A stretch of DNA of 53,303 nt from a virus (taxonomy: Duplodnaviria > Caudoviricetes), in IMG/VR virus record IMGVR_UViG_3300044613_003466, positions 1 to 53,303 of that record, one strand, 5' to 3'. The position numbers and the translations under genes are program-made. The notes beneath the pieces were generated by a model. It searched no databases. It was not told the DNA's origin and saw nothing but the letters and a program-made list of their open reading frames with translations. Positions 26,302 through 34,663 of the stretch are shown here, piece after piece. How positions within the stretch are numbered: the stretch's first letter is position 1; every line of letters begins with the position of its first letter.

Positions 26302-26657
26302 ATCAACCATCTGATTGTGTGTCAGTGGCTGAGTTCCTGGACGCCAAACGCATTGACGCGACGATTTGCCACCTGGGAGGCCTGCGTGCATCCTGGAAGG
26401 CCATGGCCAGGCCCCAGCGGATTGATGCACTGCGGGTTGCAGCTCTAAGCCTGGGGAACATTGCTGATCGGCAGCTCCCGTTTGATCAGCGCCGCACCCG
26501 ATGCCAAGTCGCTGGATCTGAAAACTGCATCTTGATGGGAGTACTCGCCCTGATTGCCTCCGCCCTGGCCTACACGGTAGGGGTTGAGCAAGGCCTCGCA
26601 CGGTGCACGCAGGGAAGGGCTGTGGGAAGTGCTGTGGCTCCGACGGTGGTGCGATGA
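26298..26657 (+). CDS. Hypothetical protein with C-terminal TM helix
   Basis: 4-bp overlaps on both sides. Confidence 0.5.
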   Translation: MNQPSDCVSVAEFLDAKRIDATICHLGGLRASWKAMARPQRIDALRVAALSLGNIADRQLPFDQRRTRCQVAGSENCILMGVLALIASALAYTVGVEQGLARCTQGRAVGSAVAPTVVR

Positions 26658-27472
26658 AAATCGCCGACTACCACCGCCACCCAGCCTGGTCCCCAACGGC
26701 GCTCAAATGCGCCGCGACCGAAACCATGGCGGTATTCAATCACCGGTTTGGCCCTGGTGCCGCGCCGTTTGTTCCGTCCGATGACATGAATAAAGGCAGT
26801 TTGGTTGACTGCTTGCTAACGCCTCCATTTTGCATTGACGAGATGTTTGCTGTCTACGAAAATGTAGACAAGCGCACCAAAGAAGGGAAGGCTAACTGTG
26901 CCGAAGCCGCAGAAAAAGGGCTTACCGTTATCAGCTTAGCATGGCTTGCAAATGCCGAAGCAATTGTCAAAGTTCTCAAAGCTGATCCTGACATCGGCCC
27001 GGTCCTGGACAAACTAACCAAAGCGGCCTGCCAAGTTCCACACTTTTGGAACGATGAGGCCGGCCGCCCTTGTCGGATGCTGCCTGACATCATAACGATT
27101 GACGGCTGTCTTTATGATGTCAAAAAAAGCCGATCTGCCAAGCAAAAAAAATTCTATTGGCAGGCTATGGATCTTGGATATGACTTACAAATGTCACACC
27201 TTGATCTCGGCTTTAAGGATAAATACGGTCGCCCCCCCGAAGAGATTGGCGTCATTGCTTTCGAGTGGGAAACCCCGCATGATTGCACCTTGCTAATTCT
27301 TGATCAAGACGACATCGCCCTAGGTCTTGAAAAACGCGAGGGAGCCTTCCGCCGTATTGCTGAATGCCAGGCTTCTGGCATCTGGCCCAGCTATGGGCGG
27401 CAATCTTTCCGACCGGAACGCGCCAGCGTTGCGCCATTAACCATTGATCCCGATTCTATTGAGCTTTTCTGA
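26654..27472 (+). CDS. RecE/DUF3799-like PD-(D/E)XK exonuclease
   Basis: YH...S.T.LK, CRMLPD...YDVKK, GYDLQ, C...G.WPSY. Confidence 0.85.
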   Translation: MKIADYHRHPAWSPTALKCAATETMAVFNHRFGPGAAPFVPSDDMNKGSLVDCLLTPPFCIDEMFAVYENVDKRTKEGKANCAEAAEKGLTVISLAWLANAEAIVKVLKADPDIGPVLDKLTKAACQVPHFWNDEAGRPCRMLPDIITIDGCLYDVKKSRSAKQKKFYWQAMDLGYDLQMSHLDLGFKDKYGRPPEEIGVIAFEWETPHDCTLLILDQDDIALGLEKREGAFRRIAECQASGIWPSYGRQSFRPERASVAPLTIDPDSIELF

Positions 27473-28449
27473 TGACTTCCTCAGCACTTGCAACACGCGA
27501 CGACAGCGACGACCTTAGGGTATTTTCCCTGGATGGATTTGAAATGGCCCAAAGAATGGCCAAGTCTTTGGCGTCTTCTACTTTGGTGCCGAAAATATAC
27601 CAGGGACAGGACGGCCTGGCCAACTGCCTGATTGCATTAGAGCTTGCCAGCAGGCTAAAAGTTTCTCCAATGGTGGTCATGCAAAACATGGTTCCCATTT
27701 ATGGCCGACCATCATGGAGTAGCCAGTTCTTGATTGGCACGGTAAACGCTTGCGGCAGGTTCTCGCCGTTGCGTTATATCTTCGACAATGAAGATGAGCC
27801 TACTTCTTGCTATTGCGAGGCTAAAGATCTTGCTTCTGGCGAAGTCCTGAGAGGTGAAAAAATCACCATTGCCATGGCCAAGGCTCAGGGTTGGTGGAGC
27901 CGCAAAGACTCAAAAACAGGCGCAGAAACCAGCAAATGGCCCACTATGACCGGCCAGATGTTGCGGTTTCGCGCTGCATCGTGGTGGGTGCGGGTGTTCT
28001 GCCCTGAGATTTCCCTGGGCCTTGGCACACAGGAGGAAGCCATCGACGTAGAGGCGGTCGCCGTGGCTGAAGTGCCAGCGGCAGCTATTGCCCCTGCAGT
28101 CCCCGCCCCCCTGACGCACCGGGCCGAGGAAGTGGTTGAAGCCCTCACCCCTGAACCAGAGCCCCAGGCCCCAAATTCCGAAGCGCCGCACAGCTCCCCG
28201 AACTTAGGGCCCAGCTCCTTGACTTTGGAAGCCACCAGCACTTCAGAGCAGCCCGCCCCGGCCACCGAACCTGGCACGGCTCAGCGGCTGCCGGTGGGGC
28301 GAACCATCGTGGCTGCCGATCCCCAGTCAGCACCCGCGCCCACCACTGCAGCACCTGCAGCTGGCCGTCGGTCCGCCCCTGCCCCGGTCCGCAGGTCCGC
28401 CCCTGGTGCTGCGCCTGCTGCTGACGCCCCGATCCCTGGCCTGGATTGA
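27472..28449 (+). CDS. RecT-like single-strand annealing recombinase
   Basis: LVP..YQG..ANC.IA.E.A...P..VMQN...GRPSWSS...W......SKW..M..QMLR.RA; follows the exonuclease. Confidence 0.8.
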   Translation: MTSSALATRDDSDDLRVFSLDGFEMAQRMAKSLASSTLVPKIYQGQDGLANCLIALELASRLKVSPMVVMQNMVPIYGRPSWSSQFLIGTVNACGRFSPLRYIFDNEDEPTSCYCEAKDLASGEVLRGEKITIAMAKAQGWWSRKDSKTGAETSKWPTMTGQMLRFRAASWWVRVFCPEISLGLGTQEEAIDVEAVAVAEVPAAAIAPAVPAPLTHRAEEVVEALTPEPEPQAPNSEAPHSSPNLGPSSLTLEATSTSEQPAPATEPGTAQRLPVGRTIVAADPQSAPAPTTAAPAAGRRSAPAPVRRSAPGAAPAADAPIPGLD

Positions 28450-28488
28450 TCACTGTCCCATCCCGTCGAATCCCATCGAATCCCCCCT

Positions 28489-29175
28489 ATGAATCGGCTC
28501 ACTTTGCTGGCCTACATCACGTCGCCGCCGGCACTCTCTACCCCTCCCGCTGGTGGCCAACGCCAGGCATCCTTCACCGTTGAGATCACCCCCTATAAAC
28601 AAACAGACCCCCCGATGCCGCTGCAAGTGACGGCCTGGGGCGAGCGTGCGCCCGACGTGATGGCAAACCTCACGCAGGACTCCTGGGCGATCGTCGCCGG
28701 CCGGCTCAGGATCGAGCAGCGCAAGCCGCCGGAGTTTCAGCTAGAGGACTTCTATCGGGTCGCCATGCCCCTCGATCGCCCCGGCGTTAATTCCGTTGCC
28801 CTGGCAGGCAGGGCCGGCCGCGACCCTGAGGTCAGCTACTTTGAGTCGGGCGTCATGGTTGCCAAATTCACCCTGGCCGTAAACCGCCGCAGCCGGGACG
28901 ATAAGCCCGACTGGTTTCCGCTAGAGATCTGGGGCCAGCAAGCCCAGGTCGCTGCCGACTACGTGCGCAAGGGCTCATTGCTGGGCATCACCGGATCGTT
29001 CAAGCTCGACCGCTGGATCGACCGCACCACCGGAGAGGAGCGCAGCAAGCCGGTGATCACAGTTGACCGTCTGGAGCTGCTGGGCAGCAAACGCGACGCC
29101 GAAGGTGGAGCCGGGGCAGGTGGGTATTCGGCCCCTGGTTACGGCGGCCAATCAGACGAGGAGGTCCCTTTCTGA
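28489..29175 (+). CDS. ssb: Single-stranded DNA-binding protein with tandem OB folds
   Basis: NSVALAGRAGRDPEV.YFESG..VAKFTLAV, acidic DEEVPF tail; extra N-terminal OB-like half. Confidence 0.85.
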   Translation: MNRLTLLAYITSPPALSTPPAGGQRQASFTVEITPYKQTDPPMPLQVTAWGERAPDVMANLTQDSWAIVAGRLRIEQRKPPEFQLEDFYRVAMPLDRPGVNSVALAGRAGRDPEVSYFESGVMVAKFTLAVNRRSRDDKPDWFPLEIWGQQAQVAADYVRKGSLLGITGSFKLDRWIDRTTGEERSKPVITVDRLELLGSKRDAEGGAGAGGYSAPGYGGQSDEEVPF

Positions 29176-30535: not shown

Positions 30536-31555
30536 ATGACCACTTTTGATTCCAGTCAAGCCGGCTTTGAGTTTGCTGTGAAGTTTGTCCGCGCTCAAAA
30601 CAAACGGGCCCTATTCGATAGTGCCACAGTCGCATTAGCCGAGCTGGCAAGGATTGACGCCCAGCCTCCAGCAACTGCAGCAGCTAAACCGACAGCAGAC
30701 CTAATCCCGCTGGCGTTTATTCCTGCCGGCAGTTTTCTGATGGGTTCGCCCGAGCACGAGCCTCACCGATTAAACACTGAAGGCCCCCAGCATGAGGTAA
30801 CACTGGCCGCCTTCTGGATGGCCCAGACACCGATTACTCAGGCACAGTGGCGCACGGTTGCAAGTTGGCCACGGGTCGAACGCGACCTAGGCCTTGATCC
30901 CTCGCGCTTTAAGGGCGATAATCGTCCAGTGGAGCAGGTGAGCTGGCACGATGCAATGGAATTTTGCTATCGCCTCAGCCAGGGCACCGGCAATAACTAC
31001 ACCCTGCCAAGCGAAGCCCAGTGGGAGTACGCCTGCCGAGCTGGCAGCACCACATCGTTTCATTTTGGGCCCACGATTAGCACGGAGGTGGCAAATTACG
31101 ACGGTAAATACATCTATGGCCAGGGCTCGAGGGGCATCTACCGCCAGCAGACCATCGATGTAGCCAGCTTCCCGCCCAATGCCTGGGACCTGCAGGACAT
31201 GCACGGCAATGTCTGGGAGTGGTGCCTTGATGGATGGCACGACAGCTACGGGGGGGCGCCAGTGGACGGTAGCGCCTGGATGGAGGGCGACAGCCTGGGA
31301 AAGCGCTGCGCGGCGGGTCGTGGATCAACAAACCCGCGAGCTGCCGCTCGGCCTCCCGCCTCAACAACCACCCGGACTCCCGCTACTCCAACATCGGTTT
31401 CCGCGTCTGTTGCCTCCCCTAAGCGCCGGCTGCTGCGCGGCGGGTCGTGGTCCGACGGCCCCGCCGACTGCCGCTCGGCCTTCCGCTTCGGCGTCCGCCC
31501 GGTCGCCCGCAGCAGCTTCATCGGTTTCCGCGTCTGTTGCCTCCCCCAGGGCTAA
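30536..31555 (+). CDS. FGE-sulfatase (C-type lectin fold) protein, DGR target-like
   Basis: IPAGSFLMGSP, PITQAQW, PVEQVSW, LPSEAQWEYACRAG, DMHGNVWEWC, RGGSW...CRSA...GFRV. Confidence 0.9.
   Translation: MTTFDSSQAGFEFAVKFVRAQNKRALFDSATVALAELARIDAQPPATAAAKPTADLIPLAFIPAGSFLMGSPEHEPHRLNTEGPQHEVTLAAFWMAQTPITQAQWRTVASWPRVERDLGLDPSRFKGDNRPVEQVSWHDAMEFCYRLSQGTGNNYTLPSEAQWEYACRAGSTTSFHFGPTISTEVANYDGKYIYGQGSRGIYRQQTIDVASFPPNAWDLQDMHGNVWEWCLDGWHDSYGGAPVDGSAWMEGDSLGKRCAAGRGSTNPRAAARPPASTTTRTPATPTSVSASVASPKRRLLRGGSWSDGPADCRSAFRFGVRPVARSSFIGFRVCCLPQG
31297..31303 (+). other. Candidate -1 frameshift heptamer G_GGA_AAG
   Basis: In-frame X XXY YYZ heptamer directly before VR1; GGAGG at 31282-31286, 10 nt upstream. 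Confidence 0.5.
31305..31419 (+). repeat. DGR-type variable repeat copy 1 (in the -1 frame, followed by TAA 31420-31422)
   Basis: 115-bp repeat of 31432-31546; encodes LRGGSWINKPASCRSASRLNNHPDSRYSNIGFRVCCLP. Confidence 0.9.
31432..31546 (+). repeat. DGR-type variable repeat copy 2 (in frame)
   Basis: Encodes LRGGSWSDGPADCRSAFRFGVRPVARSSFIGFRVCCLP; 24 mismatches to copy 1, 22 at codon positions 1-2. Confidence 0.9.
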
Positions 31556-31601
31556 TTCTTTACCCTTTCACCCTTTAATTCTTTGTCCTTGGCTGTTGAT
31601 T

Positions 31602-32162
31602 ATGAGTCCCCTTCCTCTTCCTTTCCAAACCTTAGACTGGCTCAACCATGCCGCCGATGCCGGTCAGCGTGACGCTCAGGTGCTACTGCACCTGATCGAC
31701 CGCGTCGATAAGCACGATCAAGATGTTGCAGTATTCGTGGACAGCTACTCCAAAACCATCGCCGCGCTCTGCCGCAGGCTGGATGCCCTGGAGCGTGGGG
31801 CCAACGATCTAACAGCAGCACCCGACCCTGTTGAGCCGGAAATCGAAATATGCGAAACATGCGACGGCGAAGGCACGATTGATGAACGCCTCGGCGGCAT
31901 TTCAACCTCAAACCCAGCCGCAACCTGCCCAGATTGTGATGGCGTTGGCAAGCCGCGCCGTTTTCATCGCCAACCACCAGCCGCACCAACGCCCCCGCCC
32001 ACTGAGCTGGTGGAAGTCGTCGGCAATGAACTCCCGTTACTGCCAGACGGGAGAGTTGACGAAGCTCGCACACGCGCCGCGATCAGGAAAATGGCGGACT
32101 GGCTCGACACGCAGGGGCACTATGCCAGCGCCAATGTTGTCCGCCGAGATCTTGACCGATGA
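31602..32162 (+). CDS. Hypothetical protein with DnaJ-type zinc finger
   Basis: CETCDGEG...CPDCDGVG. Confidence 0.65.
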   Translation: MSPLPLPFQTLDWLNHAADAGQRDAQVLLHLIDRVDKHDQDVAVFVDSYSKTIAALCRRLDALERGANDLTAAPDPVEPEIEICETCDGEGTIDERLGGISTSNPAATCPDCDGVGKPRRFHRQPPAAPTPPPTELVEVVGNELPLLPDGRVDEARTRAAIRKMADWLDTQGHYASANVVRRDLDR

Positions 32163-33733
32163 CCATGCCCGATCGAAACCAAATCACCCATCAACCCAGA
32201 ACCATGACCACTGATTCCGCTGACCGTGCATTGTCCCAACCCTTACCAGAAATTTCCGCAACCGGGGCGTTGACGGACATTCTGCGGGGGGCTCCAGCGC
32301 CTTCTGCACCCGCCGCCCCGCCATCCCCGGAGCCTAGGGAGGTGGCGGAGGTGGCCCAGTGGTTGCTCTCGATGCGCGAATTGGCCGGTGAGCACAACCC
32401 CGAGGAGCGGCGCCAATTCACCCGCGCCGCTACCCTGCTCCAGCGCTTGGCATTCCCTGCCTACTTGTTGGTGGTCGGTCGCCCGCCTGAGGGGGGTTTA
32501 GATCTGCTCAAGTCGCAGCCGGGCGATGTTCAGGTTTGCACTGCCGGGGTCAGCATTGAACCGCTGGGGGATGCGGCCCACCCCACATACCTAGACGCCA
32601 TTCGCCTAGCCCAGGGCTGCCACGATTACTCAGGCGGCCATAGCGGGACAGAGGGGGAGGCCTGGCATGGCGCCATTGATTTGGTTGTGGACGTGCTCAA
32701 GCGAGCGGCGGTTGGGCCCTGGGACGGCCAACTCAAGGCGGTGTATGGCGTTGGGATGGAGGCTCAGGCTGAGAAGGTGGAGGAGCTGGAGCCGGTGGCC
32801 GAGCTTGACGACCAACACCGCGAGGCGGTCCACCAAGCCGTAGCCGAGGCACTGGGCAGCGGAGCCTATGACTGCCTGCGCGTATGGGAGGCATGGGGCG
32901 TCGGGACCATGGGCCCAGATGATTTTGTGCCGGTGGCCGAAGACAGCGACCGCGTGGCTGAGATTGCAGATGCGGCCATTGAAGCGATCCGGGCGATCCC
33001 CCTGCCAGCGCCGGAGGTGGGGGAGACGGGGGAAGTAGCGGAGTTGGTGGCTTTACTGAAAATTGCGGGCCGATGGGCTACTTCTACCGGCGTGCATCTT
33101 GACCGCTTTGCCGCATTGTTCGATCAGCAGGAGGCCGAGCTGGCCGCCCTGCGGGCCGTGCCGGTGGCGGTGAGCGAGCGGCTGCGGGTTGTTAAAGCCG
33201 GCATCAGCGCCGGCTACAACCTGGGCCACCACCACACCGTTGAGGGCAGCTGGGGTGATCCTGATGATGTGGCCGACGACATTGCGCAAGAAACTCTCAA
33301 TGACATTGGCCTACCCCCAGCGCCTCAGTGCCTTATCGCCCGCATGGCTGCTGAGCTGGACCATTTACAGCCACTGCCAGCCTTCCCGCCCATCACATCC
33401 CACCCCCTCGCCATAGAGGCCCGCGCACTGCTGAGGGGCGGCCCTACCACTATTCCAGCGCCCCAGGCTGGGGAGGGGGCCGTGGCGGAGCCGGTGGCTG
33501 AATGCCCACATTGCGGCTATGAGGGCGAGATGGTGCCAGCGCCCCAGGCTGGGGATGTGGCGTTAGCGGGCGACCGGCGATCAGCGGAATCGCTGCAGCT
33601 AGCCCACGAAAGTTGCCGTTCACACGGCGACTGCCCAGATAGTGAAATCTGTTGGCTGGATATGCTGCCCTGTTCTCATTACGAAAACTGTGCCACCCCG
33701 CCAGCGCCCCAGGCTGGGGAGGTGGAGGCGTGA
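32159..33733 (+). CDS. Mosaic multi-module phage protein
   Basis: 524 aa punctuated by repeated PAPQAGE linkers. Confidence 0.6.
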   Translation: MTMPDRNQITHQPRTMTTDSADRALSQPLPEISATGALTDILRGAPAPSAPAAPPSPEPREVAEVAQWLLSMRELAGEHNPEERRQFTRAATLLQRLAFPAYLLVVGRPPEGGLDLLKSQPGDVQVCTAGVSIEPLGDAAHPTYLDAIRLAQGCHDYSGGHSGTEGEAWHGAIDLVVDVLKRAAVGPWDGQLKAVYGVGMEAQAEKVEELEPVAELDDQHREAVHQAVAEALGSGAYDCLRVWEAWGVGTMGPDDFVPVAEDSDRVAEIADAAIEAIRAIPLPAPEVGETGEVAELVALLKIAGRWATSTGVHLDRFAALFDQQEAELAALRAVPVAVSERLRVVKAGISAGYNLGHHHTVEGSWGDPDDVADDIAQETLNDIGLPPAPQCLIARMAAELDHLQPLPAFPPITSHPLAIEARALLRGGPTTIPAPQAGEGAVAEPVAECPHCGYEGEMVPAPQAGDVALAGDRRSAESLQLAHESCRSHGDCPDSEICWLDMLPCSHYENCATPPAPQAGEVEA

Positions 33734-33999
33734 TGTTAGTTCAAATTCCAACACTGGCCGACGCTTATTTTTCAATCGCAAAATGGGCTTATTGGCGTTA
33801 CGCAAGGGGAATGGTGGCCAGCAATAGAAAGCCGGTCGGCGTGCCAGGCAACCGGGACCCAGACAGCCCCTGCCCGGCATTTGAGCCCCGACCCCGCAAG
33901 CTGGAAGACTTTGCCGATTGCGAAACAGATGGACATTACCTGTGCTCTGAGTGCTGCCACAGAATGTCAGCGCCGGTATGGGGGGAGGTGGAGGCGTGA
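33733..33999 (+). CDS. Small Cys-rich protein
   Basis: RDPDSPC..F.P...DCETDGHYLCSEC; ends EVEA. Confidence 0.6.
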   Translation: MLVQIPTLADAYFSIAKWAYWRYARGMVASNRKPVGVPGNRDPDSPCPAFEPRPRKLEDFADCETDGHYLCSECCHRMSAPVWGEVEA

Positions 34000-34397
34000 G
34001 CTGCGATTGCGACTGTGAACAACCCGCCGTTTACCGACCGAACATCCAACGCGCCAGGAAAGCTCACGCCTGTTACGAGTGCTCTGGCCCGATTACCCCT
34101 GGCGATTCTCACGAGTACGTCTTCGGCGTTTGGGACGGTGAACCCGGATCGTTCAGAACATGCTGCCATTGCCTGGAGCTGCGTGCGTGGGTCACCGAAG
34201 CGGCCGACTGCTGGGCCTGCCACAGCGAGCTAGTCGAAATTGCCAGGGAAGAACTGCGCAACATGAGCGGTCCCAGGACTCCCGAAGTGCGTCAACAATG
34301 GTGGCAAGGCGCGCGGCTTTTCATCCAGGCCAGGCGACGGATGGAGACTTCCAGGGAGGCTCGGCGGCTGCGAAAGGCTGGGGAGGTGGAGGCGTGA
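33996..34397 (+). CDS. Zn-binding phage protein
   Basis: RARK.H.C.EC...I.PG..YE...G.WDG......C..C; ends EVEA. Confidence 0.7.
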   Translation: MSCDCDCEQPAVYRPNIQRARKAHACYECSGPITPGDSHEYVFGVWDGEPGSFRTCCHCLELRAWVTEAADCWACHSELVEIAREELRNMSGPRTPEVRQQWWQGARLFIQARRRMETSREARRLRKAGEVEA

Positions 34398-34663
34398 TCG
34401 TCCCAACTGCCGTTGCGGTTTTGCGCGAAATTGCGGCGATGCACTCCGAAGGTGTGGCGACGTTGCGGGCCAACACCCTCGCCGAGCGGCTTTGGCCTGA
34501 GGGTCGTCGCCAAAATTCCAAGGGCCAGGTGTTTCACTTGGGCGCCAGTGTGGCGGCGCAGTTGTTGCGAAGGTGCCCGGCTGTACGCGAAAAAGAGTCA
34601 AGGCTGTGGGAAATCCTGCCCCACAGGCTGCCAGCGCCCCAGGTCAAGGAGGTGGAGGCGTGA
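34394..34663 (+). CDS. Hypothetical protein
   Basis: GTG in the linker repeat; ends EVEA. Confidence 0.55.
   Translation: MIVPTAVAVLREIAAMHSEGVATLRANTLAERLWPEGRRQNSKGQVFHLGASVAAQLLRRCPAVREKESRLWEILPHRLPAPQVKEVEA

Follow-up and report, generated by a model that had tools for sequence, protein, structure and literature searches.

Introduction

What use can a phage gene make of two tandem copies of a hypervariable repeat? The question is raised by the gene P0001 (positions 30536-31555, plus strand) of a tailed virus (Duplodnaviria; Caudoviricetes), which encodes a 339-residue protein of the FGE-sulfatase/C-type lectin (CLec) fold, as judged from its translation, Pfam and a structure model, and which carries near its 3' end two variable repeats (VRs) of the kind rewritten by diversity-generating retroelements (DGRs). 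The window, as the term is used here, is the whole stretch of DNA analysed, 53,303 nt in length; it is the entire linear IMG/VR virus record IMGVR_UViG_3300044613_003466 (positions 1 to 53,303), for which CheckV estimates a completeness of 80%. Among its genes are those for terminase, portal, protease/capsid, tape measure and tail proteins, and it probably represents a siphovirus-like freshwater cyanophage without DGR machinery of its own. The best overall explanation of the locus, and in our judgment a probable one, is that of an orphan phage target in which the terminal repeat is rewritten in trans by a host DGR while the upstream repeat is kept as an archive.

Two Repeat Copies in Two Reading Frames

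The upstream VR (copy 1, 31305-31419) and the terminal VR (copy 2, 31432-31546) lie on the plus strand on either side of a short junction (31420-31431). Each is 115 nt long, their starts are 127 nt apart and they are 79% identical. Their shared 19-nt 5' end and 22-nt 3' core each occur exactly twice in the window when up to three mismatches are allowed, against chance expectations of 0.03 and 0.01, respectively. When each copy is read in its own frame, the 24 mismatches between them fall 11 times at the first codon position, 11 times at the second and twice at the third. An adenine stands at these sites in copy 1 in 15 cases, in copy 2 in three and in neither copy in six. An earlier reading of the locus from its letters alone (the sequence-only reading) had described the length, spacing, identical ends and mismatch pattern of the repeats accurately, and its count of only 15 adenines in copy 1 is borne out by codon-by-codon comparison.

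The same reading had placed both repeats in a single gene. This holds for the open reading frame (ORF), which runs from an ATG at 30536 to a TAA stop at 31553-31555 and spans both copies, but not for the frame of the repeats, because a spacing of 127 nt (1 mod 3) sets them in different reading frames. Copy 2 is read in the gene's main (0) frame as LRGGSW...GFRVCCLPQG, directly followed by the stop. Copy 1 has its equivalent product, LRGGSW...GFRVCCLP, in the -1 frame of the gene, where it is closed by a TAA of its own at 31420-31422. This -1 frame is bounded upstream by a TAG at 31270-31272 and is open only from 31273, and it contains no ATG, GTG or TTG start between that TAG and the stop of copy 1. 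In the main frame, copy 1 is read one base off as a stretch rich in Ser, Pro, Thr and Ala (approximately residues 257-296). Inspection shows that a one-base shift turns the C of the NNC codons into the middle base, so that adenine mutagenesis can never create a stop there. Neither the frame offset nor the stop behind copy 1 had been seen in the sequence-only reading.

An independent unitig assembly of one sequencing run (X1) covers 31198-31418 and 31389-31545 without a single difference, at depths of 43 and 37; the junction is therefore present in the reads. Three further runs (X2, X3 and X5) covered the repeat region only in part, or only by contigs with several differences, and were not used. 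Apparent skips in these contig comparisons, of low likeness and with short sides, were likewise set aside. The population of the window itself was viewed through assembled contigs (Logan), which cannot show rare variants. The tandem, frame-offset layout is a feature of the phage and not an accident of assembly.

Template and Reverse Transcriptase in Picocyanobacteria

Within the window there is no match to the reverse transcriptase (RT) domain RVT_1, no third copy of the repeat and no flank of the template repeat (TR) type. RVT_1 is likewise found in none of ten phage records (the window and nine relatives, two of them rated 100% complete and one with terminal repeats), nor is a TR-type flank found in any of the four phage records searched for it. 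When an 18-nt adenine-free part of the repeat was scanned over species-representative genomes, 93 loci were recovered, most of them in freshwater metagenome-assembled genomes (MAGs) labelled Cyanobium, Synechococcus or Cyanobacteriota, often with many loci per genome. The TRs among them have AAC at 10-11 of the 24 codons of the variable core and 25-27 adenines among 108 nt. An ORF for an RT of 380-407 residues adjoins the TR on the same host contigs, and RVT_1 was detected beside the TR in all five host genomes searched (E 1e-8 to 1e-20).

Compared with its best-matching TR, copy 1 differs at 11 adenine sites and three others, and copy 2 at 22 adenine sites and three others (11/14 and 22/25 at adenines). 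Two of the non-adenine sites, at positions 32 and 48, are found again in many other phage copies and resemble allelic differences between TRs. Both copies are thus VRs whose template resides in picocyanobacteria, which the identity of repeats and flanks marks as the likely hosts. The AAC-rich, adenine-mutagenised template that the sequence-only reading had postulated without seeing it thus exists, and the copies depart from it almost only at its adenines, as that reading had proposed to check; the location of template and RT in picocyanobacteria had not been foreseen. The locus has the mismatches at template adenines, the NNC codons and the 3'-terminal VR in an ORF of CLec/FGE fold that mark a DGR target; a cognate RT and TR in the same genome were not found for the phage.

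Several features of the host loci may be recorded here. In the host set (L011-L103; for example L021, L055, L075 and L094), the DGRs are arranged in the order target, RT and TR, with the TR downstream of the RT, together with many remote targets, and in some host MAGs the repeat loci are scattered over many separate contigs. One host target (L075, 3-1868, plus strand) is a Phage_lysozyme domain fused to a VR-bearing FGE domain.

A Live and a Frozen Copy

Copy 2 is followed by a 3' flank (CTCCCCCAGGGCTAATTCTTTACCCTTT; 31541-31568, plus strand) that contains the stop codon of the gene and that also stands behind 58 of 67 host VR units; it is absent from copy 1. The TRs part from the VR 3' flank after CTCCCCCAG. 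This flank is likely, on sequence grounds, to be a target-recognition element resembling the initiation of mutagenic homing (IMH) element. A DNA hairpin or cruciform downstream of copy 2, as in the Bordetella phage BPP-1, is not predicted (z +0.97).

Pairs of closely related contigs reveal which copy is changing. L137 and L170 match at every position of the 928 nt upstream, of copy 1 (0/72 substitutions), of the junction (0/58) and of the downstream stretch (0/208), while copy 2 differs at 21 of 72 positions, all 21 of them TR adenines. In a second pair (L136 and L160), copy 2 differs at 5/72 positions, again all adenines, and copy 1 is identical. Diversification is thus ongoing in these relatives. 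Between the window and its relative L004, the region of copy 1 (31301-31400) is 100% identical, the gene body 92-98% and the region of copy 2 only 77%; the junction differs despite the identical copy 1. Copy 2 is therefore the live, actively diversified copy, and copy 1 is frozen among close relatives, which fits the option of one active and one reserve repeat that the sequence-only reading had offered. When more remote relatives are compared, adenine-site differences are seen in copy 1 too, indicating that each copy 1 was once a live repeat. An additional decay of upstream relative to terminal copies at non-adenine sites was considered and found to be weak, the median being three such mismatches in both; the means (5.6 upstream and 2.0 terminal) are driven by L116 and L117.

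Recurrence Among Related Phages

A search with the 22-nt 3' core recovered nine related viral contigs, eight with tandem repeats and one (L006) with a single copy, a recurrence within a phage clade that the sequence-only reading had not seen. In all ten tandem pairs of the first ten records, the long ORF reads the first copy one base on from its native frame (native+1) and the last copy in its native frame, and in each of these pairs the first copy, read in its own frame, runs immediately into a stop. A gapped pattern (a repeat end followed by a repeat start) extended the set to 16 viral and 47 metagenome loci, with 56 distinct junctions, three of them spurious (L134, L158 and L164), and 46 with a measurable second copy. 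In 45 of these 46 the spacing is 121, 124, 127, 130, 133 or 136 nt, all of which are 1 mod 3; the exception (138 nt in L155) separates two upstream modules, both of them in the -1 frame. Every real upstream copy has an own-frame stop 6-10 codons past the GGT. Among host VRs, 55 of 60 distinct units are in frame with their gene and the other five lie too close to the end of the locus to be judged; none of 74 host units lies in tandem within 400 nt of another.

A second lineage (L132, L139 and L155) has arrays of three to six modules (L132 5300-6400, L155 2100-4000 and L139 6900-7683). Between two and four of these are upstream modules, whose units of 138-144 nt keep the main frame; C CTG GGA AAG stands before each upstream module and a TGA ends it. 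In L155 the last module runs on into a second FGE gene. The single VR of L006, a record rated complete, lies in the -1 frame behind G_GGA_AAG and combines a 5' flank of the copy 1 type with a 3' flank of the terminal type.

Copies are also gained and exchanged. The extra copy in L140 is a hybrid of copy 2 and copy 1 of its relative L008, three copies are present in L116 and L126, with an exact 127-nt duplicate in L116, and copy 1 of L008, like that of L157, has derived states in common with its copy 2 that are absent from the template. These sequences point to local duplication and unequal crossing-over. The one-copy L006 and the three-copy forms match what is expected of unequal crossing-over between copies. 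In addition, L133 and L159 have an identical copy 1 within flanks that differ at 170 of 913 aligned sites, suggesting that cassettes are exchanged between phages; they appear to move by recombination. L159 and L154 are identical in copy 2 as well, and the gene bodies of the set L133, L159 and L154 differ at about 19% of sites.

A Candidate Frameshift Site Before the Upstream Copy

The sequence-only reading had also proposed that the gene has two alternative ligand-binding ends. With copy 1 in the -1 frame, this requires a -1 ribosomal frameshift, which is plausible but unproven. A candidate site is the slippery heptamer G_GGA_AAG (CTG GGA AAG; 31297-31303, plus strand), which lies in the 0-frame phase just before copy 1. 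Nine nucleotides upstream of it is a Shine-Dalgarno-like GGAGGG (31282-31287), and a GGAGG-like word at a like spacing was noted by eye, uncounted, in the flanks of relatives. Six nucleotides downstream begins a predicted 13-bp RNA hairpin (31310-31347; dG -25.9 kcal/mol, z -2.77, with none of 200 shuffled sequences folding as well), whose stems are formed by the invariant scaffold and whose loop holds variable codons 1-3. The window thus has the in-phase X_XXY_YYZ heptamer inside the frame overlap and the predicted structure 5-9 nt downstream by which frameshift cassettes are recognised. A slip would yield a product of 295 residues that ends at the TAA at 31420 and in which the spacing of motifs would match that of solved relatives; in length alone, it compares with the 296 residues of P0059, a natural orthologue with one repeat.

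Across 38 distinct contexts in the phage set, 15 have G_GGA_AAG, one (L009) has A_AAA_AAG, the heptamer of dnaX, inside an overlap only 15 nt long, and 22 have an in-phase G_GGG tetramer (CTG GGG GAG), so that none lacks a slip-prone word; an in-phase canonical heptamer occurs in three of 58 contexts of the host control, and these counts are not phylogenetically independent. In L154, G_GGA_AAG is found where relatives have G_GGG_GAG. A hand count of changes between heptamer and repeat in one family gave too few to use; scaffold polymorphisms may descend from TR alleles of the host and so do not suit dN/dS-type tests of the own frame of copy 1. That a -1 slip at G_GGA_AAG expresses copy 1 as an alternative C-terminus is, from these sequence features, about evenly balanced between true and false.

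A run of seven G lies inside the gene at 31250-31256, 40 nt 5' of the heptamer. An additional G in this run would lead into the TAG at 31270, so that the run cannot switch expression to copy 1.

The Main-Frame Protein

Pfam PF03781 matches P0001 in one stretch over residues 61-333 (E 1.9e-48). In an AlphaFold2 (AF2) model built on a broadened alignment (mean predicted local distance difference test score, pLDDT, 85.7), residues 61-250 and 301-330 score 91-98, while residues 251-290, where copy 1 is read out of frame, reach only 48-58 and form no secondary structure; a model from a narrower alignment of 46 close homologues (pLDDT 39) was discarded. Foldseek ranks PvdO, formylglycine-generating enzymes and a variable protein of a DGR, TvpA (2y3c), as the best matches. 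The gap between the DGSAW-like and RGGSW-like motifs is 48 residues in P0001 and 6-10 in PvdO and TvpA, and most close homologues likewise have the insert, at lengths of 338-351 residues. On this model the main frame plausibly yields a protein of lectin fold in which copy 2 supplies the closing part and copy 1 forms a looped-out insert.

Proposed Mechanism and Alternative Explanations

In the mechanism that we propose, the gene would be an orphan DGR target whose copy 2 shares its scaffold and 3' flank with the remote DGR targets of Cyanobium and Synechococcus. Copy 2 would be rewritten in trans during infection by the host RT and its template RNA; this trans-homing by a host DGR is inferred from sequence. 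Copy 1 would be an earlier version of the repeat, retained by local tandem duplication of a unit of 1 mod 3 in length; lacking the recognition flank, it would no longer be rewritten and would remain in the -1 frame with its own stop. Ribosomes in the main frame would pass copy 1 as a disordered Ser/Pro/Thr/Ala loop before copy 2 completes the lectin fold, and with about an even chance some would slip by -1 at 31297-31303, giving the 295-residue isoform that ends in the archived copy 1. With such a slip, the gene would offer one fixed and one exploring binding tip. The fullest form of this proposal, in which a clade of cyanophages without RT parasitises the host DGR for the last cassette and expresses its archived -1 cassettes by programmed frameshifting at the repeated G_GGA_AAG, is put forward tentatively, as something that may well prove wrong.

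Three alternatives concern the layout itself and the source of the template. Repeats with identical ends and hypervariable interiors assemble poorly, and the link between the variable part of copy 1 and the junction is a unitig overlap of 30 nt, so that two population alleles of one repeat might have been joined in tandem by the assembler, the outcome that the sequence-only reading had named as fatal to its claim. This is very improbable, given that the junction is unique in sequence and lies in a separate unitig of comparable depth (37 against 43), and that 53 distinct junctions from viral and metagenome contigs, varying in sequence between lineages and with six spacer lengths, keep one common phase. 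The idea that copy 1 is the TR of copy 2, embedded in the target gene, draws on its richness in adenine and its invariance among close relatives. It fails, as the sequence-only reading had held, because nine of the 24 mismatches are not at adenines of copy 1 and a separate TR exists, from which copy 1 itself differs at 11 adenine sites; with phage records that lack RT besides, we give it practically no credence. Finally, about 20% of the genome is absent from the record, and an RT and TR of the phage's own might lie there. The completeness of 80% leaves some room for this, which counts to that extent against the trans-homing reading. With RVT_1 in none of the ten phage records, including the two rated complete and the one with terminal repeats, in all five hosts, and with no TR-type flank in the four phage records searched, this explanation is improbable.

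The remaining alternatives concern the role of copy 1, and here the proposed expression of copy 1 meets objections. Copy 1 may be a mere relic of a duplication and a 1-nt indel in the G/A run, tolerated as a harmless loop without programmed frameshifting, a view to which we assign somewhat less than an even chance. Such an indel would put the frame break at the observed place without any recoding, and the 5' flanks of copies 1 and 2 are homologous in several families, as after local duplication. The 22 of 38 contexts without a canonical heptamer, in which the hairpin lies about 18 nt away, fit this view, and the hairpin occurs in every VR and TR of the repeat family; being generic, it is no evidence of selection for frameshifting. 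The scaffold is damaged in some upstream copies (CAT TTG in L008, the Trp codon in L116 and L117 and the Cys codon of the third copy in L005). Some orthologues (P0055, P0059 and P0066) have a single in-frame VR and lack the insert, which means that the simple form works and that copy 1 could be a tolerated relic, and the AF2 model accommodates the loop. In L132 and in gene 1 of L155, moreover, module 4 is brought into the main frame by a 127-nt junction that has no heptamer, and the last module, although it bears the flank, falls outside that frame. What a relic does not account for is the presence of two different canonical heptamers, in the right phase, exactly where homology in the 0 frame gives way to homology in the -1 frame, against only 3/58 in the host control. 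Nor does it account for the stop directly behind every upstream copy despite unrelated junctions, or for the full length of the upstream copies, among whose 38 contexts no internal deletion was seen. Where as many as four modules are arrayed, every one with a heptamer and stop of its own, the relic view would have a lectin fold interrupted by some 190 junk residues at most, and the gene of L006, a genome rated complete, would have to be dead. Alternatively, copy 1 may be a silent donor cassette that recombines with copy 2 in the manner of pilS and pilE and adds mosaics to DGR mutagenesis. The hybrid copy of L140, the derived states shared by copies 1 and 2 in L008 and L157, the three-copy variants (L116/L126 and L140), the identical copy 1 of L133 and L159 in divergent flanks, and the RecE, RecT and SSB genes that adjoin the locus speak in its favour. 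The conserved stop, the heptamers and the constant -1 phase are left unexplained by it, and as an account of copy 1 we hold it to be unlikely; it is compatible with the other readings.

Genomic Context

The target gene sits among early and recombination genes, outside the tail module. A few small genes upstream, a RecET-type module (26603-29175, plus strand; PHROGs and Pfam) comprises genes for an exonuclease VIII-like protein, a RecT-like annealase and a single-stranded DNA-binding protein (SSB). As pure speculation, single-strand annealing by this module could aid the integration of cDNA or the reshuffling of cassettes. Neither a tyrosine integrase nor tRNA genes, which might hint at lysogeny or at the host, were found in the window. 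The gene downstream of the target (31602-32162, plus strand) has a weak match, under the Pfam cut-off, to a CxxC...CxxC zinc finger of the DnaJ type. In relatives (L005; P0062, P0074 and P0095), the N-terminal 70 residues of this downstream gene are fused to a second FGE-type target with tandem repeats of its own. Further downstream (32320-34663, plus strand), eight copies of a 34-nt motif ending GGAGGTGGAGGCGTGA occur at irregular spacing, and several (33733, 33999, 34397 and 34663) mark where one small ORF after another ends; the motif looks like a repeated gene-junction signal that combines a ribosome-binding site with an overlapping stop and start.

Comparison with Known Systems

In phage BPP-1, the tip of a phage protein is diversified by adenine mutagenesis at a VR whose 3' end carries a recognition element not found in the TR. 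That phage has an RT, a TR and Avd of its own, next to a tail gene with one in-frame VR, and an RT and TR supplied on a donor plasmid, that is from another replicon, are reported to act on the phage target. The locus described here is similar in its putative VR 3' recognition element, which differs from the TR, and in a tip diversified by adenine mutagenesis, and differs in that RT and TR were not found in the phage, that two VRs stand in two frames and that the gene lies among early and recombination genes. Target recognition by the BPP-1 DGR, which acts on the tail-fibre tip protein Mtd, is treated in PMC3240598.

The host loci found here are of the kind described as cyanobacterial DGRs with remote targets in one genome (Vallota-Eastman et al., 2020; PMC7517822). 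Like those, they combine targets of CLec/FGE fold, a VR at the 3' end and one RT and TR that serve many dispersed targets through a conserved 3' element. Unlike in those systems, the remote target here is on a phage in which RT and TR were not found, and it has a second, frame-shifted VR. The same study reports DGRs to be absent from the Synechococcus genomes of its data set. In Thiohalocapsa PB-PSB1, a target can hold several VRs, every one within a CLec domain of its own (Dore et al., 2024; PMC10907252); that work shows the same combination of several VRs per gene with unequal VR activity. In PB-PSB1, every VR belongs to a full CLec domain and a single frame is common to all, whereas here a single body (residues 61-250) is followed by VR segments in two frames, the upstream ones closed by stops. 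In fold, P0001 resembles TvpA of Treponema denticola (2y3c) and PvdO (5hha), both of the FGE type, and copy 2 aligns to their C-terminal strands; it departs from them in the length of the stretch between the two motifs and in the out-of-frame copy 1 that this contains.

The heptamer GGGAAAG directs the -1 frameshift between G and GT of phage lambda (PMC3296357), and Escherichia coli dnaX uses A-AAA-AAG with an upstream Shine-Dalgarno-like element and a downstream structure (PMC1851650, PMC4344849 and PMC5600365). The phage loci share with these systems the same heptamers in phase, a 6-nt spacer to a predicted hairpin, a Shine-Dalgarno-like word about 9 nt upstream and a predicted alternative C-terminus. 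They differ in that the frameshift here is predicted, and in that the C-termini it would give are two variants of one hypervariable binding segment. The G_GGG tetramer belongs to a class of slip sites named in PMC4066793; no frameshift data for it were found in the literature search. In that search, which extended to texts outside the supplements, no description was found of a phage target without RT or TR that matches a bacterial DGR, of stacked VRs in different frames or of frameshifting in DGR targets. A large metagenome survey of DGRs misses targets that lie away from an RT (PMC8144416).

Implications

Orphan DGR targets without an RT would be overlooked in viromes, and the genes in question are now called as proteins of 338-351 residues with an unexplained low-complexity insert, for which the repeat layout described here offers an annotation rule. 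DGRs are treated as self-contained, and natural variation, in a phage without an RT, of a target that matches the template of its likely picocyanobacterial host would mean that hypermutation machinery can be borrowed across the boundary between virus and host. If the frameshift is real, mutagenic retrohoming and ribosomal frameshifting would be linked, so that an old specificity is kept while new ones are explored. One gene would then provide both a fixed, proven binder and an exploring one, with up to five tips in L132 and L155.

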